DNA of 24,519 nt from an uncultured virus (IMG/VR IMGVR_UViG_3300047322_001016) (Duplodnaviria; Heunggongvirae; Uroviricota; Caudoviricetes). A program made the translations under genes and the position numbers. How positions within the stretch are numbered: position 1 is the first letter of the stretch; the number at the start of each line of letters is the position of its first letter. Positions 819-19,936 of the stretch are shown here, piece after piece. The stretch is taken from the IMG/VR virus record IMGVR_UViG_3300047322_001016. One strand, written 5' to 3'. Below the pieces are notes generated by a model, which saw only the letters and a list, made by a program, of their open reading frames with translations, searched no databases and was not told the origin of the DNA.

Positions 819-1315
819 TTCTCTCCTTTCGTTGTCCGAACCGATCCCGTAAGCCCGGCCACGAGTTGTGCGAGCGTCACTTTCGGGGACCCCGCGGCGA
901 GCCATTGCCGCCTTACCTCTTCATACTCTTTCATCGTCATCTCTTCAAGGGAAGAGCCGCTCACGATCCCGAGATAATCCTGCTGCGGCAAAGCCCGGAA
1001 GTCGTTGTTGGTGAACCGCAGCCAATTCCACACGTGTATCCAGTCGAGCGGGTCGTCGGAGACGGTTCGCGCGACGGGATGGGCTCGCAGCGACGTTTCT
1101 TTCGCGGCTGTCATCTCTTCGACGGCTGCCTTGAACTCGTTTAGCCGCGGCCGTTCTTTTCTTGTGTCGTGGAGTTTCAGGATCGCGCCGGCGACGGTAA
1201 CGCTGTCGAACGGGGCCATCGCGTTGTGCCAAAGTTTGCGCGCGCTGTCGCCGAGCTCGAAGTCCCACATTTGCTCGACGGCGCTAACGGATTCCTGGGC
1301 TTGCCGTTCGTCCAC
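815..1315 (-). CDS. Putative replicative helicase loader/inhibitor (G39P-like N-terminus)
   Basis: Pattern helix-W...W...M...D...A+..L....+..P.+.EF resembles G39P-like phage proteins (family recognition by eye). Confidence 0.55.
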   Translation of the reverse strand: MDERQAQESVSAVEQMWDFELGDSARKLWHNAMAPFDSVTVAGAILKLHDTRKERPRLNEFKAAVEEMTAAKETSLRAHPVARTVSDDPLDWIHVWNWLRFTNNDFRALPQQDYLGIVSGSSLEEMTMKEYEEVRRQWLAAGSPKVTLAQLVAGLTGSVRTTKGEK

Positions 1316-1324
1316 TAGGGCACT

Positions 1325-1528
1325 CTACGCTCCTACGGTTGGACGTAGGCCCGAGTCGAGCTCGAGAACGGCGTCGTCGTCGGCCACGAGCTGTTCCGGG
1401 ACGAACTGCTGTGTGTAGGCGCCGCATTCGGGGCAGTGGTTGGGGCGCCGCGGGTTGACCCAGCAGAGCAGGTGTCCGCAGCACGTCATCCGCAGCATGC
1501 GGAACGGCACCCGCTCGTAAGTTTTCAT
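1325..1528 (-). CDS. Small Zn-ribbon protein (67 aa)
   Basis: MKTYERVPFRMLRMTCCGHLLCWVNPRRPNHCPECG; ATGA overlap. Confidence 0.7.
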   Translation of the reverse strand: MKTYERVPFRMLRMTCCGHLLCWVNPRRPNHCPECGAYTQQFVPEQLVADDDAVLELDSGLRPTVGA

Positions 1529-1863
1529 TTGCCTCGGATCGCGTGGACGGGGCGGTGCAGCGCTTCCCACAGGTCGTATGAAATGCACGGGCCCATCGAC
1601 ACTTCGTATTCGACGACGCGCGGGTTCCGTTCGACGGCCTGCAGCTTCACGGCCAGGTCGAGCAGACGGTCGTCGTCTTTTTCGGCCCAGACGACGATCC
1701 GGTGCATCGCGGTCGCGTACAACGCGACGAACGTGCAATCCGGGTGCGGGCAGGGGAACGGCGTTGTTTTGATGCACCACCAGCCGGTCGGGTCGATCTC
1801 GACGTCAGCGACTTCCTCGTCGACGACGATCTGGCCTCTGTCGGTGACGAACGTTTCCGTCAT
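1525..1863 (-). CDS. Hypothetical protein (112 aa)
   Basis: ATGA-coupled ORF with CPHPDC motif. Confidence 0.65.
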   Translation of the reverse strand: MTETFVTDRGQIVVDEEVADVEIDPTGWWCIKTTPFPCPHPDCTFVALYATAMHRIVVWAEKDDDRLLDLAVKLQAVERNPRVVEYEVSMGPCISYDLWEALHRPVHAIRGK

Positions 1864-2174
1864 CGTCTCCACCAAGACCGTTTGGGCTGCTCGGGCCGAC
1901 AGTCAGAGCAGATGTCAGGGCGGTCTCCCGGATAGTGGAACGGATGCCCTGGTGGCGACAGAACACCGGGGCAGCAGACGCGAAGCTGGCGTCGGCGCGG
2001 ACGCGGAAGCTCGGTAAGGATTGACTCGCAGACAGCGATCATCAGCGCCCGGTTGTTCTCTGGCACCTGGTCCCACGGCTTCGCCGACTCGGGCCTGGTT
2101 TCGTATCCAAAGTCGGGAGCGAGCCGCTCGTACGTTTCGTGGAAACGGCGGGCCAACGTTTCGGCGTCGGTCAT
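1860..2174 (-). CDS. Phage hypothetical protein (LARRFHETYERLAP...W...P.NN..LM type)
   Basis: ATGA-coupled; N-terminal motif typical of a common phage ORF family. Confidence 0.65.
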   Translation of the reverse strand: MTDAETLARRFHETYERLAPDFGYETRPESAKPWDQVPENNRALMIAVCESILTELPRPRRRQLRVCCPGVLSPPGHPFHYPGDRPDICSDCRPEQPKRSWWRR

Positions 2175-2398
2175 TCTTGCCACTCCGCGCGAACGTCGAC
2201 GCTGCCGGCGCCAGGGCCGACGTCGACGGGGAACACCTTGTATCGCTTCCTGACGATGTTGTCCTCGTCGATCGTCATCTCGGCGCTGGCGACGTCGAAC
2301 TCGGTGCCGTTGACCGTCAGGCGGGTGATGTCGCCGTAGACGAAACAGTCGCTGTCGGGCGAGATCCTGACGATTCTCTCTTCCCGGATGTCAGGCAT
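2171..2398 (-). CDS. Hypothetical protein (75 aa)
   Basis: Coupled ORF, beta-rich composition. Confidence 0.6.
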   Translation of the reverse strand: MPDIREERIVRISPDSDCFVYGDITRLTVNGTEFDVASAEMTIDEDNIVRKRYKVFPVDVGPGAGSVDVRAEWQE

Positions 2399-2612
2399 CG
2401 CGCATCACGTCGTTGAAAAGGCCTGTGTGGATGAGGGCGTCGTATTCGCGGGTCAGGGTTCGCCGGATCGAGTTCGCGAAGTTGCTTTCGCCGTCGGGGT
2501 CGTCGGCGAAAATGTCTTCGCATTTGCAGCCCATCACGGGACCGTAAACCTGGCTGACGTAGTCGACAAGGTCGGCGTCAGGGAACAGAGACGAACGCAC
2601 GGGCGGGCTCAT
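2391..2612 (-). CDS. Hypothetical protein (73 aa)
   Basis: ATG at 2612 overlaps the upstream TGA; MSPPVRSSLFPDADLVDY. Confidence 0.6.
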   Translation of the reverse strand: MSPPVRSSLFPDADLVDYVSQVYGPVMGCKCEDIFADDPDGESNFANSIRRTLTREYDALIHTGLFNDVMRDA

Positions 2613-2995
2613 GGTTTCTTCCATTCCGCGTCGCCCTCCACCTGTGCCTCCACGAGCCTGCGAATGTCGGACACCGGCCCTGGCTCCACCGGCCCTGGCC
2701 CCCAGTGCACGTTGGCGACGTGCTCGTCGCAGCGTTCCTGCGTCGGCCAGCCGATCCCGCACTCCGGGCATTTGAAGCGGCGCTTCGACTCGCCTTCGAT
2801 CGCCTGCACGAAGTCGAACACCGCCGGCGGCGTGTGCCGCTCCCGGGCGAGACGGCCGAGCGCTCCCACCGCGGTCTCGAACTCGAGCCCTTTGAAGAAG
2901 TCGATCCAAACGTCGAGGCTGTCGTCGACCAGGTACATGCGGGGCCAGTAGCCTTTCATCCGGCCGACGAGAACGGTTGCTTCGTCGAGCGTCAT
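2609..2995 (-). CDS. G39P-like helicase loader/inhibitor with C-terminal C2H2 zinc finger
   Basis: MTLDEATVLV...YWP...VW...A+..L....PPA+.D N-terminus; FKCPECG-x9-H-x4-H; lies downstream of the HTH replication gene. Confidence 0.7.
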   Translation of the reverse strand: MTLDEATVLVGRMKGYWPRMYLVDDSLDVWIDFFKGLEFETAVGALGRLARERHTPPAVFDFVQAIEGESKRRFKCPECGIGWPTQERCDEHVANVHWGPGPVEPGPVSDIRRLVEAQVEGDAEWKKP

Positions 2996-3411
2996 GTTTC
3001 TCTCTCCAGTTTCTTCTGCTCTTCGCGTTGCCTGATCTCTTCCGTCACCTGCCGGAACCGCTGCACCGCGGGGTTCTGCGACCGGCTCACCGTGTTCAAC
3101 GTCTCGTTGTACTGGGTGGGCGACATTTTCTTCCCGGCCTTCGCCAACACACAATCCATGATCACGTGGCTTGTGTACTGCGGCGTGCTTTTCTGGATCG
3201 CCATCACACAGCCGATCAACACCATCTCCGGCTCAACCCCGTCGTCCAACGCATCCCGGCCCTGCTTCACCGCGATCGCGATCACGTTCCGCGGCAACTG
3301 CCCCACTCCCATGTCCGTCAACTGGTCGGTCACCGCCGCGAACAACGCCTGCCCCGGAGACACATTCGGCTTCTCAGGCTTCCCGCCGCCGATCGGAACA
3401 ACATCACCCAT
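2992..3411 (-). CDS. Hypothetical replication-region protein (139 aa, MGDVVPIGG...)
   Basis: ATG at 3411 preceded by GAGG/GGAG; fused in frame to the HTH ORF only as sequenced. Confidence 0.6.
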   Translation of the reverse strand: MGDVVPIGGGKPEKPNVSPGQALFAAVTDQLTDMGVGQLPRNVIAIAVKQGRDALDDGVEPEMVLIGCVMAIQKSTPQYTSHVIMDCVLAKAGKKMSPTQYNETLNTVSRSQNPAVQRFRQVTEEIRQREEQKKLERET

Positions 3412-3868
3412 GGATCTCCATTTCCTCAAGCGGCCGAAGTCGCGTTTTGGCGTCCGCGCCGACTTCACGAAGTGAAGTCGATGTTTGGAAGTACGGCTTT
3501 TCAAGCGTTGTGTACCACGGGCACCGGAAAGCCTGAGCCGACCGGACGGGAATCCGTAAACAACCGTCGTCCTGCAGCCGCCGATCTTTCGTTTCCCCTG
3601 ACGCACGATCCGGCCGGTCTTCTCAAGACGGGCCCTGGCCCGAAGGATCGTCTGGCGGCTCACCCCAAGCGCTGCCGCCGCGGTGCCGTCCGAGCAGAAG
3701 TAGAGCCGGTCACGGAAGCGGGCCTTCTCCACCATGAACGCGAATAAACGCTCATCGGTTTCGCGGCAGCCGTCCCGTGGTATATCCTTCTGGATGGCGC
3801 GACCTTTCTGGTAGGTCGTTTTGAACGGCTCGGTTCCTTTGGGGGTGACCGGGCCGTTCGCTTTTCAT
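3404..3868 (-). pseudogene. Winged-HTH replication-initiator-like protein, apparently carrying two single-base indels (core readable from ATG 3735)
   Basis: TDERLFAFM...YFCSDGTAAAALGVSRQTILRARARLEKTGRI is an HTH motif. A natural start at 3868 and a stop at 3404 overlapping the next start are each reachable only by one-base shifts. Confidence 0.55.
3823..3865 (+). terminator. Antisense (plus-strand) intrinsic terminator-like hairpin
   Basis: gaacggctcggt (3823-3834) / accgggccgttc (3848-3859), followed by gctttt. Confidence 0.45.
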
Positions 3869-4580: not shown

Positions 4581-5171
4581 TCAAACCAGGCTGACTTGCC
4601 GTGCGTTCGCGATCCGCAGGAACGCTTCCTCGTCGGCCTCGAGCATCAGCTTCTGCGCCAGCACGACGTCGTCCTGCGGGTATCCGTACTCCGGGTGGAT
4701 GCAGTACGCCCACGCCAACCCGTCCTCGCCGCGGACACGCTTCGGCTGCCCCGTCGGACTGAGCCGATACCGGCGGGTGCCGTCGCGCGTCTCGACGTGG
4801 AAGAACCCGTCTTTCAGCAGCTCTGCCTGCTGGTCGTCGGCGAGGGCCTCCAACAGCAGCTTCCGGGCCCGCTCTTTCGCGGCCGCTTCGAGAACACGAC
4901 GCTCCGCCGCCGCCGCCTGCGCGGCTTCCGCCCGAACACGGTTCGCTTCGATCTGCTCTTCCGTGAGCGGAGCGGCCTGAGTGTAGTACCCGGTGTTGTA
5001 GACGGACATCCCCGACCAGGCATCCCACACAACGTTCGTGATCGTCGTTGAGTCGGTCGCTGTTGTCGCCCACGTCTGCCACACGATCTGCGACGACGAC
5101 GTCCCATAGTCAATGGTGCCGTTCGTCCACATGCCCCACGTCTCGGTCGTCGTTGCGTACGTGATCGCCAC
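4581..5171 (-). CDS. Hypothetical protein with Thr/Trp-rich N-terminus, coiled coil and C-terminal C-x-H domain
   Basis: YCIHP...P.DD.VLAQKLMLEADEEAFLRIAN; starts 3 nt after the GG-ending protein. Confidence 0.75.
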   Translation of the reverse strand: MAITYATTTETWGMWTNGTIDYGTSSSQIVWQTWATTATDSTTITNVVWDAWSGMSVYNTGYYTQAAPLTEEQIEANRVRAEAAQAAAAERRVLEAAAKERARKLLLEALADDQQAELLKDGFFHVETRDGTRRYRLSPTGQPKRVRGEDGLAWAYCIHPEYGYPQDDVVLAQKLMLEADEEAFLRIANARQVSLV

Positions 5172-8524: not shown

Positions 8525-8850
8525 GGCATCTCCTGCCACGGACGCAGGTCGTCGCATTCGGTCAGGTCCTGCCACGGAACGTCGAACACGTCCCGCTCCA
8601 CCACCACGAAGTTCAGGTACGAACCCACATGCACGTTCAGCACAACATCACCTTTCCTGAACCTTTCTCCGTCTTCGAGAATGTCGTGGTACGAGTTGAT
8701 CATCACACGCTGACCCGGAGGGTTCTTCATCCAGTACACCTTCCACGGCGGCAGCCTGCGAGCCACGTCCGCGACGGGAGCATGCTCGGGGTCGGCGAGC
8801 CACTCTTCCCACTCGGCCAGCTCTTCGTCGGTCGGAACGATCGGCTCCAT
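8521..8850 (-). CDS. Hypothetical protein (109 aa)
   Basis: TGATG overlap with the purA-like gene. Confidence 0.7.
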   Translation of the reverse strand: MEPIVPTDEELAEWEEWLADPEHAPVADVARRLPPWKVYWMKNPPGQRVMINSYHDILEDGERFRKGDVVLNVHVGSYLNFVVVERDVFDVPWQDLTECDDLRPWQEMP

Positions 8851-10310
8851 CAGACCTTCACCGGCTTGAGCGTCCTGTAGCTGGACGGCCCTTCCCCGAC
8901 GATCGTGACGGGAACGTTCCCGGCCGCCTGAATCACGTTCACGATGTCATACGGAACCTCACGTGGTTCCTGCGTCAGCTCGATCTCGCCGACGTTCGGG
9001 TAGCAGTCGAACAGACGCCGTGTGACGCACTCCATGTGCGAAATGTCGCCGCCCTTGATCCCTGTGACCTCGCCGCTCTCTCCCGTCGATAGATAGCGGC
9101 CGATGCCGTCGTCGCCGAAGTACTCGTACGACTCCACAACAGGCCACGCATCTCCTGAGAAAGCATCCAGGTGCGTCACCGCGATCGAGTCGGGACGGGT
9201 GCGCCCGACCGCATAGCGGAACGCGACCGCGTCGAACGGTGACCTGCGGAACTCGCCCGCCGTGCCGAACTCGTATTTCGGATGAATCTCGCGCTCGTTG
9301 GGCGCGTTGTGCGGCTCTTCCCACCAAAGCCTGTTCCCCTTCGCCGCGAAGTCGCGACTCTCATACGGACGCCTTCGGTTAGCGTCCGACGGGAACGGCC
9401 CCGCCCCGTGCCTGGTCGTGTACGAACGAACAACCCCGACCGTCTCCACATCAGTGGAGTCCAGGCCGGCGATCATCAGCTCGCTCCGCGCTGGCCCTGG
9501 CGTCACGTCCGACCATGTCGTGTGCGGATGGAACCCGACGGCCTCATCGAGCAGCACACCCTGCGACCCTTCCAGCACAACCGTTCCGGAATTCCGGAGC
9601 AGGTTCGACAGATGCACGTTGTCGACCAGTCTTGTCCTGGCCGCCCACTCCGCGTATCTGTCCACCCACGCTTCCACCGAAGCAGGCTTCTCCCCGTAAA
9701 GCAACAGGCGCGCGGCCTCGAGCCTGTCCGACCAGTTCGCGGTGTCGTCAGGGGGATGCTGATGGTCAACCCACCGATCCTGCTCCACACCGTAAAAAGC
9801 GATCAGCTTTTCCAGCCGCTTCCTGGTGGTCTGCTTGTCGGCGAGCTCGCCTGCGTGCAGCATCAGGCCGCCTTCTCCGATCACACGCCGCGTCTCGCCG
9901 ATCCCTTTCCCTGTGGTGCCGTGGGCCCTGCCGCGACGGTAGTACTCTTTCAGCAGGTTCGCGGCCTCATGGACGGGTGTCGTCACCAAACACCCTTTGT
10001 TGACCGACAGACGATCCCAAACGTCGGTTTCGCCGAGCGTCGCCAAATGGTAGTACTCGTTGAACATGTCGAGCGGGTTGATCATCATGTCCCGCCCCAG
10101 GTAGGTGTCGGCACCCGCGAACGTGCCCGACCCGAACTGCGCGAACGTGTGATGGCGCCCGTCGGGCGCGATCACATTGTGGGCGGCCTGTGCGCCGCCG
10201 CTGAACCTCATCACCGTGTGAGCCCCATGCTCCCGCGTCAGGTGTTCGACGACCTGGCCCTTGCCTTCGTCTCCGTACAGCAACCCTATAACGATGAACG
10301 CCTTGCTCAT
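8850..10310 (-). CDS. purA: Divergent adenylosuccinate synthetase family protein
   Basis: GDEGKG P-loop, RFSGGAQAAH, GTTGKGIG, EGSQGVLLD, YTTRHGAGPFPS, THLD, C-terminal GP. Confidence 0.9.
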   Translation of the reverse strand: MSKAFIVIGLLYGDEGKGQVVEHLTREHGAHTVMRFSGGAQAAHNVIAPDGRHHTFAQFGSGTFAGADTYLGRDMMINPLDMFNEYYHLATLGETDVWDRLSVNKGCLVTTPVHEAANLLKEYYRRGRAHGTTGKGIGETRRVIGEGGLMLHAGELADKQTTRKRLEKLIAFYGVEQDRWVDHQHPPDDTANWSDRLEAARLLLYGEKPASVEAWVDRYAEWAARTRLVDNVHLSNLLRNSGTVVLEGSQGVLLDEAVGFHPHTTWSDVTPGPARSELMIAGLDSTDVETVGVVRSYTTRHGAGPFPSDANRRRPYESRDFAAKGNRLWWEEPHNAPNEREIHPKYEFGTAGEFRRSPFDAVAFRYAVGRTRPDSIAVTHLDAFSGDAWPVVESYEYFGDDGIGRYLSTGESGEVTGIKGGDISHMECVTRRLFDCYPNVGEIELTQEPREVPYDIVNVIQAAGNVPVTIVGEGPSSYRTLKPVKV

Positions 10311-10361: not shown

Positions 10362-11072
10362 TTACTTGAACACGATCGGACTGCCGACAGTCACGACCTT
10401 GAACGCCAACTTCGTGCCGTTGTTGCAGTCCGGCGCCGCACCCGTGCCTCCGTCGGCCATTCCATGGCCGGTGCCGCCATCCTCGCAGAGCCACCGCGTC
10501 CCGTCACCTAGTCCGGCGGGGCCGGGAGGTCCCTGCGCTCCCGTAGCACCAGTGAGTCCGACCGAACCAGCCGGGCCAGGTGCGCCCGTGTCGCCCTTCG
10601 CTCCGCTCGCACCAGTAGCTCCCGTATCACCCTTCGGTCCGCTCGGTCCAGCCGGGCCTGGATCTCCCTTCGGGCCCGCAGGGCCTGTCGTGCCTCCTGC
10701 CGCGGATCCGGCGGGGCCGGGAGGTCCGGCTGGGCCCGCTGGGCCCGCTGGGCCGACCGCACCCTTCGCTCCTGCAGGACCTGCGGGACCTGGTGCACCT
10801 TTGTCTCCCTTCGGGCCCTTCTGGCCTGCGCAATAAACATCAGGCTTGAGCGGCGTCAGCGTCCTACACGGAATCGCAACGCCGACCTTCCGAGTCTCAC
10901 CCGCAAGACACTTCTGGTACGGGATCTCCGCGATCGCGCGGACGACCCCGGTGTGGTTGTCGATGCAGAACGGGCCTGCGAGACGCCGGCCATGGTCTGC
11001 CGAAGCTGGAACCGCGATCACCGCAATCGTTGCGAGCGCGGTGACCACGATCAGCCAGAGATACTTCTTCAT
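10362..11072 (-). CDS. Secreted collagen-like protein
   Basis: Signal peptide MKK-hydrophobic-ASA; ~35 Gly-X-Y triplets in two blocks; Cys-containing flanking domains. Confidence 0.9.
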
Positions 11073-11116
11073 GACTCTCCCCTTCGTCGTTGGTGGGCAA
11101 TTCGCCTTGTCCCCGA

Positions 11117-11206
11117 TTACCTTTTCGACCTCAGCGGCGACGACAGAACAGTTATCGCGCCGTCCACTTCGGCCCGCGCCACCGCGATTGTTTCCTGGTC
11201 GACCAT
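11117..11206 (-). CDS. Possible 29-aa peptide ([29 protein letters not shown])
   Basis: Preceded by an exact CAACGAAAGGAGA RBS; may be frameshift-truncated. Confidence 0.4.
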
Positions 11207-11224
11207 GTGTCTCCTTTCGTTGGT

Positions 11225-11263
11225 TCGCGGACCGGACCGCCGATTTGGCGGTCCGGTCCGCGA
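11225..11263. terminator. Perfect 17-bp hairpin just downstream of the vWA stop
   Basis: tcgcggaccggaccgcc-gattt-ggcggtccggtccgcga; no U-tract. Confidence 0.6.
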
Positions 11264-11270
11264 GATGGAA

Positions 11271-12308
11271 CTAGAGCCGTTCGGCTCCGCTGTCGGAGTC
11301 GTCGAACGAACCGTCGATCTCGGCGACCGCAGAGCCGCCGCCGCCGACCGTCGCAAGCGCCTTCCCGACGCTGCCGGCGATCCCCGACTCGACGCCGATC
11401 TCGGCCAGATGGCCGAGACCCTCGTCGATGTCGTCGATCACACCCTCACCCAAGCCGATGGTGAGCGCGATCGTTTCGCACACAGCGTCAGCGTCGGACA
11501 GCACGAGCGCGTTCTGCCCCAGCAGCATCCGCCACGTCGGGTCACCAGCGATCGGGGTGTCTTCGCCGATGATCTCCGCGGCCGTGTAGTTCGCCTGCTC
11601 CGCGAACAGGAAGTAGAGATCCCATTTTTCCTGCAGTTGTGCGTACACGTCTTCGGTGGAGAGGTTGTCCTGCAGCTTCGCTCCGATCAGCGACTCGACC
11701 TGGTGACGGTCGACCTTCGGATAGTTCCTTTCGTCGCCGATGAAAAACACGTAGCCCTTCTTGGAGCGCTTCTCCCACGCGTCGGTTGCCGTGTGGTTGG
11801 CGAGATAGTACGCCGCGAGCTCGTACGTCTCGTGCGTCTGGCCGCCGCCGCCGCCCTCCAGAATGAAGTTCTCGAGATTCTCGTCAGCCCTGTTGTCCGA
11901 CTCGAACTGCCCGATCTGCAACGGCACACGGTCGCACGTCGCATCGCCGATCGCCGCGTACAAGATCTGCGGGTGTTCCACGTAGCCCTTCTCGAGCAGC
12001 AGCCCGTACAGCTTCCCCAGCTTCGACTGCAACACCCGCGGGATCTTCCCCATCGAACCCGTCACGTCGAACACGACCGCGATCGGCAGCGACTCGGGAT
12101 GCTCGTCACTGTCCCGCGACTCACGGATCGGCTTGCCTTTGAACGGGCTGCCGTCACCAGCAACCCACGCAGGATCGAGCGTCTCGTGAACCTCGTACAC
12201 GCCTGTTGCGCGCGAGTGCGCGTCGTACGTGAACTGGTCGAGACCAGCGCTCGCCTTCGCCGACGTCCGCGACACATAGTTGACAGAACTCCAGGTTCCG
12301 CCGCCCAT
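11271..12308 (-). CDS. von Willebrand factor A (vWA) domain protein
   Basis: MIDAS-like FDVTGSMG, IGDA, EGGGGG...ETYELA, FFIGDE; N-terminal MGGGTWS. Confidence 0.9.
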   Translation of the reverse strand: MGGGTWSSVNYVSRTSAKASAGLDQFTYDAHSRATGVYEVHETLDPAWVAGDGSPFKGKPIRESRDSDEHPESLPIAVVFDVTGSMGKIPRVLQSKLGKLYGLLLEKGYVEHPQILYAAIGDATCDRVPLQIGQFESDNRADENLENFILEGGGGGQTHETYELAAYYLANHTATDAWEKRSKKGYVFFIGDERNYPKVDRHQVESLIGAKLQDNLSTEDVYAQLQEKWDLYFLFAEQANYTAAEIIGEDTPIAGDPTWRMLLGQNALVLSDADAVCETIALTIGLGEGVIDDIDEGLGHLAEIGVESGIAGSVGKALATVGGGGSAVAEIDGSFDDSDSGAERL

Positions 12309-12414
12309 AGTTACCACCTTCCCTTCGTTGTTTTGCCACTTGCGTGGCTTCGGGATCTGAGTCCCAGGCGGCCGATCGGGAACGCCACCTTATGACTCAA
12401 ATGTATCAAACTAA

Positions 12415-12507
12415 GCCTGCCAGACCGCGCCGCGCGTTGCCCTGCCATACCGGGCCCGGCCCCGACTGCCGTGCCATGCCACGCCTTGCCACGCCTAGAC
12501 CTGACGC
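12415..12507 (-). repeat. Mini (NN-GGY)n pentamer array, 17 units in 2 segments; putative guide RNA
   Basis: Plus-strand parse: gcct|gccag accgc gccgc gcgtt gccct gccat accgg gcccg gcccc|gact|gccgt gccat gccac gcctt gccac gccta gacct gacgc. Confidence 0.9.
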
Positions 12508-12510
12508 GCA

Positions 12511-12927
12511 TCAGTTTGCGATGTCGGCTCCAACCATCGCCAGGAACTCTTCGAACTCCTTGTATCGGTCGAACAGCTGCTTCCACTCCCGCTCCATAGA
12601 GATCAGAAGCAGCTTCCGAGTGAAATCGTCCTCGGCGATCCGCTCCACCGGTTCGTAGACGAACCCTTCGTCGGTCTGGATCGCGTGGAACGCCCTGACG
12701 CTTCTCTGCGGCCCGTTCTCGTCTGCTTCCTTGTAGACGATCTTGACGCTCGAGATCAGCTCGTGAGCACGATGTCTGTACCACGCTTCCGCCGCGTCCT
12801 TCACGTTGCGGTCGAACACAAACGCGTGAAGCGGATGGCTCTTCGGACGAGCCGCCTGCACGACCAACTCAGGCGTCAGCTTCCCGTTGGCGGCGTAGAT
12901 CGCCTGAAGCTCTTCCCGTAGGCTCAC
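12511..12927 (-). CDS. Accessory protein coupled to the Cas7-like gene (138 aa)
   Basis: GTGA overlap with the Cas7-like stop; G.LTPE.VV..AR...HPLH..F....AA motif. Confidence 0.85.
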   Translation of the reverse strand: MSLREELQAIYAANGKLTPELVVQAARPKSHPLHAFVFDRNVKDAAEAWYRHRAHELISSVKIVYKEADENGPQRSVRAFHAIQTDEGFVYEPVERIAEDDFTRKLLLISMEREWKQLFDRYKEFEEFLAMVGADIAN

Positions 12928-13595
12928 CCGATGACCTCGACTTCCTTGTCCGGGTCGACGCAGTACGTGCCGAACTCGCCGCCCTTCTCCGGCCTCCACT
13001 CTCCCACTCCGACGCCCATCCCGCCGGCGTCGATGAGAGCAAGAACCGACTCTCGGGTGAGAGCCGAGATCGGGTAGGTGACGGTCAGGCTCGTCTTCCA
13101 CTGCAGGAACTGCGGGCGGTACCGAAGATCGGTGCCGCCACGCGCGACCCTCACGACGTCCTCGCGCATGTTCGGCTCACCGTCGACCGGAACCATCATC
13201 CGCCCGTCGTTCCCGATCTCGCCCAGGAACCACAGGAACGACTTGATCTCCGTCATCTTGACGGCGTGGTAGAACCGGGCACCACCGACAGTGGCGTCCT
13301 TGAACGCGCCGGCGATCATCCCCGGCCGTCCGTCGTTCATCCGATAGAACGCGGCCTCGTACTCTGCTTCCGGGTCCTTCGCCTTCTTCGGCGACTTGCG
13401 GCCCTGCATGTTGTCGAGCATCTGCTTCTTCGCCTTCTCCGAGAACCGATGAACGATCAGCGGCGTGATCCCGAGGATCGGAACGATCAGCGTCTCCCGA
13501 GCGATCCGCTCGATGTGAAGCTCCGCACCGCCCGTGTCGGGTGCGTCCGTCGTTGCGCTCGAACCGTTGGATGCTGCAGCCTTCTTCGTTGCCAT
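12924..13595 (-). CDS. Stand-alone Cas7/RAMP-like protein (223 aa); putative effector of the pentamer-array RNA
   Basis: AAAGGAG RBS before ATG 13595. RAMP-like motifs: GITPLIVH (strand 1), GRPGMIAGAFKDA (cf. IPGSSLKG), thumb hairpin REDVVRV...DLRYRPQF, C-terminal G-rich loop GVGVGEWRPEKGGEFG. Confidence 0.8.
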   Translation of the reverse strand: MATKKAAASNGSSATTDAPDTGGAELHIERIARETLIVPILGITPLIVHRFSEKAKKQMLDNMQGRKSPKKAKDPEAEYEAAFYRMNDGRPGMIAGAFKDATVGGARFYHAVKMTEIKSFLWFLGEIGNDGRMMVPVDGEPNMREDVVRVARGGTDLRYRPQFLQWKTSLTVTYPISALTRESVLALIDAGGMGVGVGEWRPEKGGEFGTYCVDPDKEVEVIG

Positions 13596-13631
13596 GATCT
13601 TTTCTCCTTTGCTTGTGTTACGGGATGAACA

Positions 13632-14626
13632 ACCTTGCCTGCCAAGCCGGGCCGTGCCCAGCCTCGCCCCGCCTAGACACGCCCCGCCTAGCCGTGCCTG
13701 CCTGCCGTGCCACGCCCGACCTAGCCATACCGTGACGCGCCGTGCCGAGCCATGACGGGCCGTGCCTGCCACGCCTGACCATGCCGCGCCATGCCGGACC
13801 CAGACCTGCCGCGCCGAGCCTAGACTGCCGAGCCGTGCCGCGCCAGACCTTGCCGGGCAACGCCGAGCCGAGCCACGCCGTGCCATGACTGCCATGCCGA
13901 GCCACACCGTGCCGATGCCAGGCCCTGACTTGCCGAGCCAAGCCGCGCCGATCCTGCCAAGCCAAGCCGTGCCCGGATCCGCCGAGCCCTGCCGTGCCGA
14001 GCCATACCGAGACCCGCCTAGCCGGGACTGCCAGGCCATGCCATACCGTGCCCGGACGCGCCAAGCCCCGCCCCGCCACGCCTGCCGAGCCCTGCCACGC
14101 CCAGCCGTGCCAAGCCAAGTCTGGCCGTGCCCTGCCGAGACGGGCCGTGACGCGCCGCGCCTTGCCTGCCATGCCGAGCCATGCCGTGACCTGCCCCGAC
14201 ACACCGGGCCAAGCCTGCCTTGCCGTGCCCTACCTGGCCCCGCCACGCCTAACCTCTTCCCGCCATGCCTGGCCTCGCCTGCCCAGCCGCGCCAAGCCGT
14301 GCCGCGCCCTGCCATGTCGAGACGAGCCTTGCCTTGCCTGCCACGCCCTGTCACGCCGAGCCCTGCCCGACCAAGTTCTGCCATGCCGCGCGTTGCCATG
14401 CCTGTCTTGCCACGCCGTGCCTGGCCGCACCGTGCCGCGCCTAGCCACACCAGCCGTGCCATGCCCCAACTCGCCGGGCCATGCCTGCCTTGCCTGGCCG
14501 TGCCATGCCGTGCCCGACCGCGCCTGGACACGCCGCGCCCAGTCTCGCCCAGCCACGCCGAGCCGCGCCTTGCCTGCCGGGCCACGCCGGGACTCGCCCG
14601 GCCAGACCTTGCCCCGCCATGCCACG
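13632..14626 (-). repeat. Large (NN-GGY)n pentamer array, ~184 units in 16 segments; putative multi-guide non-coding RNA
   Basis: Strict 5-nt periodicity gccNN (variants acc, gac, gtc) on the plus strand, punctuated by 4-nt units (mostly gcct) every 6-17 pentamers. Confidence 0.95.
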
Positions 14627-15706
14627 CTACCTGTCTCCAGGCATTTTGAACTCTCGAAACTTCCGTCGTCCCCAAAGCCGTTCGATTAGATCGTCAAAAG
14701 ACCGTAGTGCGCTGATTGTGTCACTGGGACGCATCGATGCTTGGGGGATTACGCAGGCTCGAAAATGAGCCCTGATTGCCCGAGGGATAGGATCTCTCAA
14801 TTTCCCGAGCACGGGGTCGCCGCCCAACACTCGCACCATGCTTTTCGCCGCGATGAAGATGTCCGTCGCCGGCGTAGACGGCTGCTTCTCAAGGACTTCG
14901 TCGGGATACCAGTCGCGGTACCTGGGGATGATCGCGACCGGCTTCGTGCCGGCCTCGGCGGAGTAGCACCAGTCGATCAGCACCACGCCGTGTTCGGGCG
15001 GCAGGATCATGATGTTGTCGGGGAACGGCGCATGATGAACGATGCCGGCGTCGTGTGCGAGCGACAGCGCGGTGAGTATGCGCCGCCACATCCACGCCAT
15101 GTCTTTCGCGTCGATGCCGTTCGGGTAGGCCCTCGCCACGTCGGCGAGCGTCACCCACTGGCCGCTGTCCCCGGGCCTGTTGGCCGGCAACGCGTCGAAC
15201 ACGTTGGCTTGCCTTTCGACTCTGCTCGAGTCCTTCACCCTGAGTGCGTCAGTCAGCCGCGGCAGGAACACATGCTTGCTCTCATGGGCTTCGCGGCGGA
15301 TCTTCTTGATCGCCGTCACTTCGCGTCGCATCAGGTCGCCGTCCCTGGGTGACCTGGCGATCTTGATGATGCCGCCGTCGCTCGAGTAGATGTCGGCGAT
15401 GTCGCCCCGCTCGAGCTTGGCGCCGAGCAGATACTTCTTCTTCTTCGACGTCACCGTCAAACCAGCGAGACCAGGATCGTCCCATGTTCCGTTGTCGAAC
15501 AGCTCACGGGCGATCCGCCACATCGCGCTCAACTGGATGAACTGTTCCGTCGCCGCCGCGACCTGCTCGGATGTGGCTTCCTTCGGGAGTCGGTCGGGGT
15601 GGCTTTCGCGGACGAGTTCGCGGTAGATGTGTTGTGCTTCCTCGAACGTGGCGTTCTCGCCGCCGAACATGTCCTGCGGCCGCGCGGCTTTCGCGACTGC
15701 GCTCAC
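14627..15706 (-). CDS. J-domain (HPD) plus Ser/Thr protein kinase-like fusion
   Basis: YRELVRESHPDR; GDIADIY, IIKIAR, L..E, IVHHAPFPDN, LIDWCYS, YPDE, TDIF. Confidence 0.85.
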   Translation of the reverse strand: MSAVAKAARPQDMFGGENATFEEAQHIYRELVRESHPDRLPKEATSEQVAAATEQFIQLSAMWRIARELFDNGTWDDPGLAGLTVTSKKKKYLLGAKLERGDIADIYSSDGGIIKIARSPRDGDLMRREVTAIKKIRREAHESKHVFLPRLTDALRVKDSSRVERQANVFDALPANRPGDSGQWVTLADVARAYPNGIDAKDMAWMWRRILTALSLAHDAGIVHHAPFPDNIMILPPEHGVVLIDWCYSAEAGTKPVAIIPRYRDWYPDEVLEKQPSTPATDIFIAAKSMVRVLGGDPVLGKLRDPIPRAIRAHFRACVIPQASMRPSDTISALRSFDDLIERLWGRRKFREFKMPGDR

Positions 15707-15903
15707 GATCCACTCCGGAATTCCGGAGAGACGACCTTCTCTAGTGTGAGAACGATGATGTCGGGTCGCCCTCCGACCACCTGAACGTCAGCCACGGTGA
15801 ATTGTGTGCCGTCCGCGATGACGGCGACCACGGGAAGGATTTCTCCTTCTTCGATCTCCATCAGTTGGTCGACGAGATCTCCGCCGTCCATTACTGCTCC
15901 CAT
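15703..15903 (-). CDS. Hypothetical protein (66 aa)
   Basis: Fills the gap between rtcB and the kinase; GTGA-coupled to the kinase. Confidence 0.6.
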   Translation of the reverse strand: MGAVMDGGDLVDQLMEIEEGEILPVVAVIADGTQFTVADVQVVGGRPDIIVLTLEKVVSPEFRSGS

Positions 15904-15905
15904 CG

Positions 15906-17246
15906 TCAGTCCTTCCACGGGTCATGGACGTCGGCTCCTGCCATCACGACGCCGACGGGACGCAGCATGTGCACGACCTCGATGTTCGAGTGCTGCCCGA
16001 GCACCGTCGCCAAATCCTTGTAGGCGGCTGGTGCTTCGTCGGCCGCGGCGCCGACGACGATGATGCCGCGCTCCCGCAGCTCCTGCTTCACCGTCGGCCA
16101 GTCGATCAGCCCTTCGCTGACCTTCTCTTCCGTCCAGAACTTCCGCAGCACGGTGCCGTGCTCGGGGCAGTAGTCGCCGTCTTTGTGTTCGCGCGCGGGC
16201 TGCGTGTAGTGGCAGTTCCGTTCGCCGCACCCGTACATCTTGCGCTTCTTCACCTTCCCTGCCGCCTTGGTGCGTGACATGGCGCGTCCTGCTCCGTGCG
16301 GCGCCGAGCCGATCGCCCCGATGTCATCTACTGCTGTCGCGGGTGGCGGCAGCGGCTGACCTGTCCATCCGCCGCCGATCTTGCCGCGAACGATGACCGA
16401 CATGTCGCCCATCGAGCCGCCGATGAACGCAGGATCACGCGTGAGCGGCGTCGCGCCTTTCCGCACGACAACCTTGCCGTTCTCGAGCCACGCGTAGTTG
16501 TGATGGTTGTGGACGCTCGACACCGGCAACGCACCCAGGATGTCGAGGACCTGGCTCATCACGTAGTCGCGTCCCGCATACGCGTATGCGCCGGCGAGCT
16601 CCATGCACTCCCAGTAGAACGCGCCGATCTCGCTGTCGAGGTTGAACACGGTCGGCTCTTCCCTGTCCTGGGCGCCGTCGCCGAACGCACGGTTCGCCGC
16701 GAGGTTCAGGAAGCCTTTCGCGATCGTGTGTCCGAACCCGCGGGAGCCGAAGTGGTTCGCGACCCACAGCCACCCGTTTTCGTCGACGAGAAGGTCGACG
16801 TAGTGGTTCCCGGCGCCGACGGTGCCGAGCTGCCGTTCGGCTTTCTGCTTCAGGCCTGGCGAGCGCTTCTCGATGTCGGGCCACAGGTGGCTGTCGAACA
16901 AAGGATGGTCGACTTTCTCTTGTTCGTTGGAGCGGCCCATTCCGAACGAGATCCGCTCGTTGATCTCGGCCAGTAGCGGCTGGACTTCGCGTTCCACGTC
17001 GGCGAACCGCAGGTTCGTCTTCACGGCCTTGTTGCCGCAGCCGATGTCGTAGCCGACACCAGACGGCGACACGGCGTTGTCGTAAGCGACGACGCCGCCG
17101 ATCGGCATCGAATACCCGACGTGCCCGTCGGCGCACAGAGCGGCCGCCACAGCCCGTTCGTCCGCGGCGACCATGTTGAGCTGGTCGATCGTCTTCTGGT
17201 CGTGATCACCGAAGACCGTGACCGGCTTCGTTGCAGTGTCAGTCAT
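15906..17246 (-). CDS. rtcB: RtcB family RNA ligase (3'-P/2',3'-cyclic-P to 5'-OH)
   Basis: D.H.GY..PIGG, GYDIGCG, QLGT.G.GNHY, H.GSRGFG, HNY, RKGATP, GSMG, SAPHGAGRAMSR, DEAPAAYK; ATG at 17246. Confidence 0.95.
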   Translation of the reverse strand: MTDTATKPVTVFGDHDQKTIDQLNMVAADERAVAAALCADGHVGYSMPIGGVVAYDNAVSPSGVGYDIGCGNKAVKTNLRFADVEREVQPLLAEINERISFGMGRSNEQEKVDHPLFDSHLWPDIEKRSPGLKQKAERQLGTVGAGNHYVDLLVDENGWLWVANHFGSRGFGHTIAKGFLNLAANRAFGDGAQDREEPTVFNLDSEIGAFYWECMELAGAYAYAGRDYVMSQVLDILGALPVSSVHNHHNYAWLENGKVVVRKGATPLTRDPAFIGGSMGDMSVIVRGKIGGGWTGQPLPPPATAVDDIGAIGSAPHGAGRAMSRTKAAGKVKKRKMYGCGERNCHYTQPAREHKDGDYCPEHGTVLRKFWTEEKVSEGLIDWPTVKQELRERGIIVVGAAADEAPAAYKDLATVLGQHSNIEVVHMLRPVGVVMAGADVHDPWKD

Positions 17247-17437
17247 CCTCTCCCTTTCTTTGTTCGTTCTTCGTGGATCACGTCGCACCGCTCAGCGAGC
17301 ACAGTCGCGGCCGCCCCGAGTTGGACGAGTTCGGCGGGCAGGAAGTGGACGCGGAGGTATTCGTCGACGGCGTAGGCGCCTGTGTCGGCTTCGGCGTCTT
17401 CTGCGGCGATCAGCAGCGCTTCTGTTTCTGTGCTCAT
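17243..17437 (-). CDS. Hypothetical protein (64 aa)
   Basis: AGGAGG RBS; ATGA-coupled to rtcB. Confidence 0.65.
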   Translation of the reverse strand: MSTETEALLIAAEDAEADTGAYAVDEYLRVHFLPAELVQLGAAATVLAERCDVIHEERTKKGRG

Positions 17438-17507
17438 GGCTGAATACCTCCTGTTGGAAGCCAAGCCACTGGATAAGCCATCCCGCGAAGCGTGGTTCCC
17501 ATCCCGC

Positions 17508-18183: not shown

Positions 18184-18392
18184 GACGCGACCGGCCTGTC
18201 GTAGCCGTCGACGAGGATCGGACGCATGTGGCGTTCTTCCATCATGATCGCCGCGACCATCGCCGCTTCCCGAAGCTCGGTGGGCGTGAACGTGTTCCCG
18301 TCGGCGTGTGCCTGTTCCGCCAGCCGGTAGATCGTGTCGACAAGCATCCTGAACAGCGGATCCTGCCTGTACCGATCCCTTGAGCTCATCAT
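18180..18392 (-). CDS. Hypothetical protein (70 aa)
   Basis: DRY..DP.FR.LVD...TPTELREAA; ATGA-coupled. Confidence 0.7.
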   Translation of the reverse strand: MMSSRDRYRQDPLFRMLVDTIYRLAEQAHADGNTFTPTELREAAMVAAIMMEERHMRPILVDGYDRPVAS

Positions 18393-19936
18393 GATTCGCT
18401 TTCCGGCTTGAACTCGGGCACTTCGACGGCTGCCCCTTCGAACATCTCCGCGAACGCCTGTTTGATGCTCTCGGCCGACAGTTCGGGCTCCGCCATGAAC
18501 AGCTCGGTCAGGCGCCCCGCTGCGTTCGCTGCCCTCGTCTGCGCTTCCGTTTTCGCGGGTTCTTCCAGCTTGCGGTAGTCGCCGTCGCCGCCGTAGACGA
18601 ACGCGATCGCCTGCCGCATGATCGACTTCCAGTCGAGCGACGGGTCGACCTCGTCCAGCACTTCGCTGATCCCTTTCCACCCTGACTTCTTCTCGGGTGC
18701 GTCGTCGCGCCGCATCGTGGCAGGGTCGAAAGCATCAACCGGTTCGCCGTCTTCTGGTTCGTCTCCGAACGGAATGTCTTCAGCGGGAGTCTGCCCCGCG
18801 GGAGCGGCGGCGTCCTCGGGTTCGACCAGTTCCGCTTCCACGACCTCGTCGACTTCGACCTTCGCTTCGGCTTCGCCCTCCGGAATTCCGGAGTCGAACG
18901 GCGTCCCGGGCCCTTCCACCGCGACACCGCCGAACGCCCACGCAAACATCTTTTTGTAGTCGTCGGCCGAAGGCGGCGGGAAGTCACCAGCCGAGAACAG
19001 CTCGTCGCGGATCCGGGTGAGCACGTTCGCGATCCTTCTTCCGGCCTCGCTGCCCTTGTCGTCGGGAAGCTCCTTCACGGGGCTGCCGTACAGCTTCTGC
19101 ACGGCCTCTGAGATCCAGTCGGGCAAGGTCGGGTCGAGCTCGAGCGCGAGCTTCCCGATCTCTCTCCACCCGGACGGAGCGTCTTTCGCGAGCGAGTTGC
19201 CCGGGTCGAACCGCGGGTCGCGCCAGTTCGTCAGCTTCCCGACGGGCGTTTCCGTTCCCGGCGTGTCGTAGCCGGAGCCGCCGTAGCCGCCTTCGTCCCA
19301 GTCCTGCATCTCTTCGGCTGCGTACACCATCCCGCCGACCATGTCGGAACCCAGGCGGCGACACAGACGCCCGACGCACCTGGCCCACAGCATGTCCTGC
19401 CGGTACTTCTCCCAGTTCGCTTTCGTGTTCAGGCCGGCGTCGATCGCGTCCTCGATCGTCCACTCGACCTCGGCCTCTTCGCCGGTGTCGGAGCGGCGCG
19501 CGTGGATGAACGCCCGCTCCTTCGTCGACCCGGACTTCAGGATCACGAGGCCGCCGCGGCGCATCTGCGCCAGCATCTCTTCCGCCGCCAACGACGGCTT
19601 CCCGTCGATGATGTGGACCTTCTGCAAAGCCTGCATCGGCCCCAGGCCGATCTCGCGGCCGTACAGGATCCCCGCCACCACGGCCTCCGGGTTGCCGCGG
19701 TAGGCCTTCGGCACGAACGTCGTGTTCGCGATCGTGCGGGCCATCGTCATCGTCGCTTCCCACTCGCCCGGCGACGGCAACACCGCCGCCGGCGGCTGCG
19801 GCGCTTCGCGTTCCTCGCGGATCGCGACGGCCTGAGACTCGATCTGTTCGGGAAGCGACACTTCCGTCCCGGGTGTTTTCTCTTCCTCGGCTGTGATTTC
19901 GACGGCGTCTCCGTCGACCACGTCTGTTTCGCTCAT
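18389..19936 (-). CDS. recT: RecT/Redbeta-like single-strand annealing protein with duplicated C-terminal domain
   Basis: FVPKAYRG.P...ILYGREIGL.PMQAL..+H+IDGKP and W.KY...ML.AR...R...D..GG.Y..EEM motifs. Confidence 0.8.
   Translation of the reverse strand: MSETDVVDGDAVEITAEEEKTPGTEVSLPEQIESQAVAIREEREAPQPPAAVLPSPGEWEATMTMARTIANTTFVPKAYRGNPEAVVAGILYGREIGLGPMQALQKVHIIDGKPSLAAEEMLAQMRRGGLVILKSGSTKERAFIHARRSDTGEEAEVEWTIEDAIDAGLNTKANWEKYRQDMLWARCVGRLCRRLGSDMVGGMVYAAEEMQDWDEGGYGGSGYDTPGTETPVGKLTNWRDPRFDPGNSLAKDAPSGWREIGKLALELDPTLPDWISEAVQKLYGSPVKELPDDKGSEAGRRIANVLTRIRDELFSAGDFPPPSADDYKKMFAWAFGGVAVEGPGTPFDSGIPEGEAEAKVEVDEVVEAELVEPEDAAAPAGQTPAEDIPFGDEPEDGEPVDAFDPATMRRDDAPEKKSGWKGISEVLDEVDPSLDWKSIMRQAIAFVYGGDGDYRKLEEPAKTEAQTRAANAAGRLTELFMAEPELSAESIKQAFAEMFEGAAVEVPEFKPESES

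Follow-up and report, generated by a model that had tools for sequence, protein, structure and literature searches.

A probable VIPR locus in an uncultured soil phage, with one guide probably directed at the nuclease motif of the terminase large subunit

What is the role of a stretch of almost a kilobase in which a phage repeats a five-base unit about two hundred times, with three bases largely constant and two bases variable? This question is raised by a window of phage DNA, meaning here the whole stretch that was analysed, which is 24,519 nucleotides in length, derives from an uncultured virus (IMG/VR IMGVR_UViG_3300047322_001016), and carries most of its genes on the minus strand. The reading favoured here, to which a probability of roughly 0.87 is attached, is that the window comes from a soil or rhizosphere phage and includes a VIPR locus, one guide of which, guide D, is aimed at a motif of the large terminase subunit. 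The underlying observation, that the variable dinucleotides of guide D spell a terminase motif, is confirmed, the interpretation placed on it is supported, and the mechanism is already published (VIPR, 2026).

According to the text of the VIPR preprints, VIPR is a phage-borne locus made up of the single-RRM RAMP protein Vipr, an accessory gene (vap) and vrRNAs encoded in the flanking intergenic DNA, each vrRNA being composed of 9–16 GGY/NN pentamers (10.64898/2026.04.26.720920). One Vipr protomer per repeat hides the GGY bases, and the NN bases pair with the target in the pattern N1 N2 x3 (10.64898/2026.04.26.720927). The skipped target base is usually the wobble base of a codon, binding silences transcription, and in nature the system is directed against competing phages, prophages and satellites (10.64898/2026.04.26.720920). 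In Escherichia phage SUSP1, GGY is held by R138 of the thumb together with the G-loop residues D177-W178-R179 (10.64898/2026.04.26.720927). The type II VIPRs studied are those of SUSP1 and of a Pseudomonas fulva prophage (10.64898/2026.04.26.720920), and a further preprint also deals with VIPR (10.64898/2026.10.15.759431).

The repetitive tract of the window is the following feature:

13637 to 14625, minus strand: upstream vrRNA array, 989 bases in 201 units, GGY-NN as read on the minus strand.

The 201 units were found to comprise 183 five-mers, 17 four-mers and a single six-mer. On the plus strand their cores are GCC (156), GAC (17), ACC (16), GTC (5) or other (7), so read on the minus strand the core is GGY (GGC or GGU) in 172 of the 201. 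All 16 dinucleotides occur at the NN positions. Across the whole window, runs with at least six GCC in eight five-base steps are confined to this array and to positions 12458–12468, and no such run was found on the opposite strand. Tandem Repeats Finder (TRF) and repeat parsing yielded pentamer tracts only, without a CRISPR repeat-spacer array. Four other rhizosphere metagenome runs yielded contigs that contain pieces of the array with 0 differing letters, and the array is thus not an assembly artefact of one sample. With its 17 four-mers as boundaries, the array falls into 16 guide-like segments, each 6–17 units long, listed here in plus-strand coordinates:

Segment A, 13641 to 13695: 11 units.
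Segment B, 13704 to 13763: 12 units.
Segment C, 13768 to 13822: 11 units.
Segment D, 13827 to 13886: 12 units.
Segment E, 13891 to 13951: 4 units, one six-mer and 7 units.
Segment F, 13956 to 14025: 14 units.
Segment G, 14030 to 14079: 10 units.
Segment H, 14084 to 14163: 16 units.
Segment I, 14168 to 14212: 9 units.
Segment J, 14217 to 14276: 12 units.
Segment K, 14281 to 14335: 11 units.
Segment L, 14340 to 14399: 12 units.
Segment M, 14404 to 14448: 9 units.
Segment N, 14453 to 14482: 6 units.
Segment O, 14487 to 14571: 17 units.
Segment P, 14576 to 14625: 10 units.

When 183 NN of the array were scored against dinucleotide models made from this phage's own genes, the best model was that of sense codon positions 1-2 (+7.5 bits); the antisense model scored -24.7 bits, and the remaining phases scored from -53 to -147 bits. 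No repeated or structured 3' tail was found between the guides, the four-base unit being their sole separator, and no Rfam family, the hammerhead included, was matched within 12000–16000. A search for sigma-70-like promoters found 0, with 0.2 expected, and a look-up of RNA runs listed none that contains the stretch. The array begins right after the stop codon of a kinase-like gene, so co-transcription with that gene is possible.

On its other side the array adjoins two genes, which are followed by a second, much shorter array:

12924 to 13595, minus strand: vipr, 223 aa plus stop codon, encoding a predicted RAMP-fold vrRNA-binding protein, directly downstream of the array.
12511 to 12927, minus strand: candidate vap-like gene, 138 aa, whose GTG start overlaps the vipr stop (GTGA); matches phrog_15946 (E=2.9e-19).
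12415 to 12507, minus strand: downstream mini-array, composed of GCCT, 9 units, GACT and 8 units, just past the vap-like gene.

What identifies the 223-aa protein as Vipr? By sequence comparison the protein is a Vipr homologue, distant from the Vipr of SUSP1. It matches phrog_4652 (E=2.3e-36) and no Pfam family. A family profile, built from the protein and 34 homologues (35 sequences), was found to match PDB entry 36pp_D, 'SUSP1 Vipr protein', with E=4.1e-21 over 184 of 208 profile positions, and this was the only solved structure matched; the single-sequence match to SUSP1 Vipr (E=2e-4) covers residues 156–208 only. In the alignment, R160 and E199-W200-R201 correspond to R138 and D177-W178-R179 of SUSP1, with D replaced by E, and R160 and R201 are invariant across the 35 homologues. 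For H17 and K33 of SUSP1 no alignment was obtained. The AF2 model of the protein (pLDDT 88) resembles most closely, by Foldseek, Csm3/Cas7 chains (E about 4e-6, TM about 0.5), which are RAMP proteins from CRISPR complexes of types III and VII.

The proximity of the array to this gene raises the question of whether the array is itself translated, either to give the downstream protein an N-terminal extension rich in Arg, Gly and Ala, or to make a separate low-complexity protein. Read in phase with the vipr ATG, the minus strand is indeed free of stops across the array (ORF 14675..12924), the three minus frames containing 0, 8 and 1 stops, and shuffling of the units left the in-phase frame open in 1.0% of 5000 trials (p about 0.01). 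In addition, gene 43 of Gordonia phage Pipp has been annotated on top of that phage's array. However, in 21 other upstream arrays stops are no rarer in the in-phase frame than in the other two (totals of 8, 14 and 8 with the window included), and the open frame of this window is for this reason treated as chance and not as translation. The homologues of the 223-aa protein align from residue 24–26 onward, and its ATG at 13595 is preceded by the Shine-Dalgarno-like AAGGAGAAAA. Furthermore, the variable positions recur with a 5-base and not a 3-base period, and among the listed loci of other phages 56 of the 81 arrays beside Vipr genes lie downstream of the gene. A coding array is accordingly considered very improbable.

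Another conceivable role for the pentamer tract is that of a DNA or RNA structure, such as an origin prone to R-loops or G-quadruplexes, a recombination site, or a sponge for a host protein. The strong strand asymmetry, with GG every five bases in the transcribed sense, would suit such a role, as would the RecT-like gene nearby. It would nevertheless leave unexplained the linkage of the tract to a RAMP protein with conserved GGY-binding residues, as well as the hypervariable NN positions and the in-frame terminase matches described below, and we give a structural role hardly any credence. An array of VIPR guides remains the preferred reading.

The 138-aa gene is a candidate for the vipr accessory (vap-like) gene. 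For its product 232 homologues were found, among them one from a Streptomyces genome, and the gene lies beside vipr in 12 other loci, including those of the Gordonia phages Pipp (gene 44) and Ecliptus (gene 20). The model of the 138-aa protein (pLDDT 89) shows weak winged-helix-like matches for residues 1–99 (Z 5–6); Foldseek returned no match at E<=0.001, and Pfam nothing but a sub-threshold TPR (E=0.1). A 157-aa ORF at 12311–12784, considered as the downstream gene, is without any homologue and crosses the mini-array, and the ORF at 12511–12927 was preferred. The mini-array contributes two further guide-like segments, bringing the locus to 18 (16+2), and the guides thus flank the vipr and vap-like pair on both sides, as in SUSP1.

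Guide D, the segment flagged in an earlier note on this DNA, is the following feature:

13827 to 13886, minus strand (as RNA): guide D, 12 five-base units, parsed directly from the sequence.

From 13827 the plus strand reads GCCGA GCCGT GCCGC GCCAG ACCTT GCCGG GCAAC GCCGA GCCGA GCCAC GCCGT GCCAT, in which unit 5 (ACC) and unit 7 (GCA) depart from the GCC core, and GACT four-mers flank the segment at 13823–13826 and 13887–13890. The dinucleotides that the earlier note had given for the plus strand, GA GT GC AG TT GG AC GA GA AC GT AT, were reread identically, and they equal codon positions 1-2 of D-V-A-R-F-G-T-D-E-T-V-I/M. The leading Asp of this motif we take to be a catalytic metal ligand of the RNase H-like terminase nuclease fold. 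The same note had assigned the RNA to the minus strand, in agreement with the 81 of 81 arrays of other listed contigs in which the GGC-sense strand is the vipr strand, and had proposed the target's coding strand or mRNA as its pairing partner; since the coding-sense dinucleotides are those of the plus strand, a minus-strand vrRNA would be complementary to a coding strand. Its further proposal, of a phage-borne guide that reads NNx, skips the wobble base and acts against competitors, corresponds to what the VIPR preprints describe, and a Vipr homologue adjoins the array.

Does guide D have a target? The search pattern, with 24 specified bases, had been fixed before any search. Run unchanged, the regular expression proposed in the earlier note gave exact matches in one viral contig and one metagenome contig, and none in genome contigs. 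Both sites are in codon register within ORFs of 469 and 500 aa, and translate as DVARFGTDETVI and DVARFGTDETVM, the codons being GAT GTA GCG AGG TTT GGA ACT GAT GAG ACA GTT ATC and its synonym. When unit 4 (AG) was freed, nine viral loci (the exact one included) and one genome locus were obtained, the latter a prophage-like site in a Solirubrobacteraceae metagenome-assembled genome (MAG). Two loci match all 24 read bases and nine match 23 of 24, their Arg codon being CGN. The caveat attached to the original proposal, that Arg at the AG unit needs an AGR codon, thus stands, since the high-GC terminases use CGN. In 11 of 11 loci the reading frame gives DVARFGTDETV[IM] and the skipped base falls on the wobble position, two of these loci (L146 and L149) being the same sequence; the motif's invariance in the alignment of these targets (A2) is by construction, the loci having been chosen by the pattern.

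The ORFs containing the motif are 461–701 aa in length, and the assignment to terminases made from the motif was upheld by family searches. All nine ORFs submitted (L149 and L168 lay outside this set) match phrog_2, 'terminase large subunit', with E=5e-30 to 2e-52. In Pfam, one of the nine passes the curated cut-off (Terminase_3, locus L150) and three are without any match. A profile of eight target ORFs was found to match 8dkr_B, a solved terminase nuclease domain (E=2e-12) close to whose start the motif aligns, and also to match the terminase ATPase domain (4znj, 4zni) and the Sf6 gene 2 protein. The matched terminases share 32–47% protein identity, and the GC content of the 11 target loci ranges from 0.44 to 0.71. 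One of them, L152, has a terminase ORF (933–3035, minus strand) of 701 aa with a sub-threshold LAGLIDADG match at residues 147–195, which may represent an intein or a homing endonuclease insertion in the terminase.

With about 16 segments in the array, the match between guide D and terminases could be a coincidence, in which case the locus would still be a VIPR locus and D would have another target or none. Segment D was picked after all segments had been viewed, and exact matches were found for one of five guides scanned, D only: guides F, B and K and units 1–12 of H each gave 0 exact matches in viral contigs. The contigs with the exact sites have GC contents of 44% and 53%, unlike the window at about 63%, and for the same reason it is doubtful that the phage of the window and the exact-match phages share a host. 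Against coincidence stand the pattern set beforehand over 24 specified bases, the match that spans D from its first unit to its last, and the frame, motif and protein family shared by all 11 loci. As a control, the dinucleotides of D in reversed order gave 0 matches, as did the four other guides in the same collection, and the pattern of D read backward occurred 0 times in 7 target records. Coincidence is judged improbable on this evidence, and the terminase motif remains the preferred target of D.

The other guides were compared with the same targets and with further sequences. D was the only one of 14 guides to score above shuffled guides in a comparison with 6 complete target contigs plus 3 loci, which indicates that those phages are not a target on which the array converges. 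For guide H, 401 genomes from the phylum to which the Solirubrobacteraceae match belongs gave 0 matches when up to 3 mismatches were allowed. Within the window itself no D site was found with up to 3 mismatches, and the search for self-targeting gave at best 16 of 20 bases (10-unit segment P), which is at chance level, with all others below 80%.

How would such a locus function? On the minus strand the order is the 16-guide array, vipr, the vap-like gene and the 2-guide mini-array. By analogy with the published systems, minus-strand transcription of the array would be followed by cleavage into vrRNAs at the four-base units, each GGY would be bound by one Vipr protomer, and the next two bases would be left exposed. 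The resulting filament would pair its dinucleotides with a DNA strand, skipping every third base, and the R-loop triplex so formed would block transcription. The dinucleotides of guide D would complement the first two bases of each codon for the DVARFGTDETV[IM] strand, which lies where the nuclease domain begins in a family of large terminase subunits. Because D skips the wobble base, synonymous mutation of the site would offer no escape to a competing phage or prophage.

The locus shares with the VIPRs described a minimal, phage-borne organization, a RAMP-like Vipr, a small candidate accessory gene, and GGY/NN arrays on both sides and on the gene strand. The guides, at 6–17 units, are similar in length to the 9–16 units given in the preprint text, and the NNx reading of the target with the skip at the wobble base is also alike, here for guide D only. 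A parallel to SUSP1 lies in its vrRNA4, which according to the preprint text sits on an enzyme-core motif of a satellite recombinase, as guide D does on a core motif of terminase. The locus differs from that of SUSP1 as described there in its number of guides, four in SUSP1 and 16+2 here, and from the type II VIPRs in lacking the invariable structured 3' tail (a pseudoknot) carried by each of their vrRNAs. An assignment to type II (SUSP1-like), one of the types I–VII of VIPR, was dropped, since there is no tail between the guides and no Rfam match in 12000–16000. It further differs from the other VIPRs in its target, the large terminase subunit, which is not named in the running texts of the VIPR preprints as distinct from their full target tables, and in a host range that probably lies within the Actinomycetota.

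A further likeness may be found in staggered vrRNA arrays, where each vrRNA and the next have 1 nt in common (legend of Fig. S18, 10.64898/2026.04.26.720920). The guides of this window likewise abut, and a 1-nt overlap would give four-base units, which are seen 17 times here; the likeness is drawn from a figure legend, and the processing sites in this window are predicted ones. The effector complexes of class 1 CRISPR systems resemble the locus in the predicted fold of Cas7/Csm3 and in the modelled principle of a protein filament on a guide RNA that breaks the duplex periodically. They differ in that the window contains no repeat-spacer array and no other cas genes, none of its 16 scanned ORFs matching a Cas family. 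Guide and target have periods of 5 and 3 in this locus, as against 6 for both in class 1 CRISPR, and three guide bases would be hidden per unit here, compared with one in class 1 CRISPR.

Is the locus type confined to this phage? Loci were collected from viral contigs by the pattern (GCCNN)7GCC alone, which gave at least 139 stretches; about 58 of the 139 listed loci carry 300-base flanks only, and some loci overlap, so that not all are independent. A Vipr homologue is encoded in 53 of the 139 listed loci, and in these all 81 arrays have their GGC sense on the strand of vipr, 25 of them upstream and 56 downstream of it. The homologue search for Vipr found 27 Mycobacterium and 5 Gordonia phage records, among which are the following arrays:

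Mycobacterium phage Saal (NC_023580.1, locus L002), 3592 to 3842: array of 250 bases occupying the gap ahead of gene 51.
Gordonia phage Ecliptus: array in the gap after gene 19, beside a Vipr homologue.
Gordonia phage Pipp (MN234179.1, locus L001), 4617 to 4886: array under gene 43, flanked by gene 42, which encodes the Vipr homologue, and the vap-like gene 44.

Gene 43 of Pipp, recorded as a 'hypothetical protein', is thus probably a mis-annotated vrRNA array, and the same probably applies to other records. The carrier of the window's locus is probably an actinobacterial soil phage. An identical Vipr is on record from a contig of 148,519 bases. A megablast of 11000–17500 against 50,697 phage records found no near-identical phage, and no guide of this array was found to recur in the arrays of the other listed loci. 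Among the viral contigs, L013, L048, L085 and others carry arrays of at least 120 units or several arrays consecutively. In L013 the four-mer punctuation is almost absent, so the array architecture varies among relatives.

The genes around the locus were identified mainly by family searches:

8850 to 10310, minus strand: PurA/PurZ-like adenylosuccinate synthetase (Pfam Adenylsucc_synt, E=1.6e-54; phrog_1211, a PurZ-type family).
10362 to 11072: collagen-like tail fibre, by family search.
11271 to 12317: phrog_2971 protein, by family search.
14627 to 15706, minus strand: kinase-like protein (phrog_3043) with a sub-threshold DnaJ-like N-terminus.
15906 to 17288, minus strand: RtcB RNA ligase, by family search.
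18389 to 19936: RecT-like protein, by family search.

The kinase-like protein and RtcB, which adjoin each other directly upstream of the array, may form an RNA-repair pair. The presence of a PurA/PurZ-like enzyme means that adenine in the phage DNA may be replaced by 2-aminoadenine.

A bolder proposal combines these elements, namely that guide D is a family-wide weapon and that 2-aminoadenine in the carrier's DNA might help Vipr to tell self from foreign; we regard it as unlikely. The proposal builds on the fact that D reads codon positions 1-2 of an invariant active-site strand and thereby matches terminases of 32–47% identity from loci of 44% to 71% GC. If it were true, a single 12-unit vrRNA could keep many competing phages and prophages, unrelated to one another, from packaging their DNA, and self/non-self discrimination would rest on base modification, a principle not described for VIPR.

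What does this locus add to the VIPR family? The published VIPR code was recovered here from raw sequence alone. The locus represents a natural VIPR example, in a soil phage, beyond the enterobacterial and Pseudomonas systems studied, and its array is among the longer ones seen, with 18 guide-like segments in the locus. Specific to it are the staggered 16 + 2 segments, the guide matching the terminase nuclease motif, and the link to cultivable Mycobacterium and Gordonia phages. These cultivable relatives, Saal and its relatives together with the Gordonia phages Pipp, UmaThurman, Ecliptus and ODay, offer test models for VIPR in Actinomycetota.
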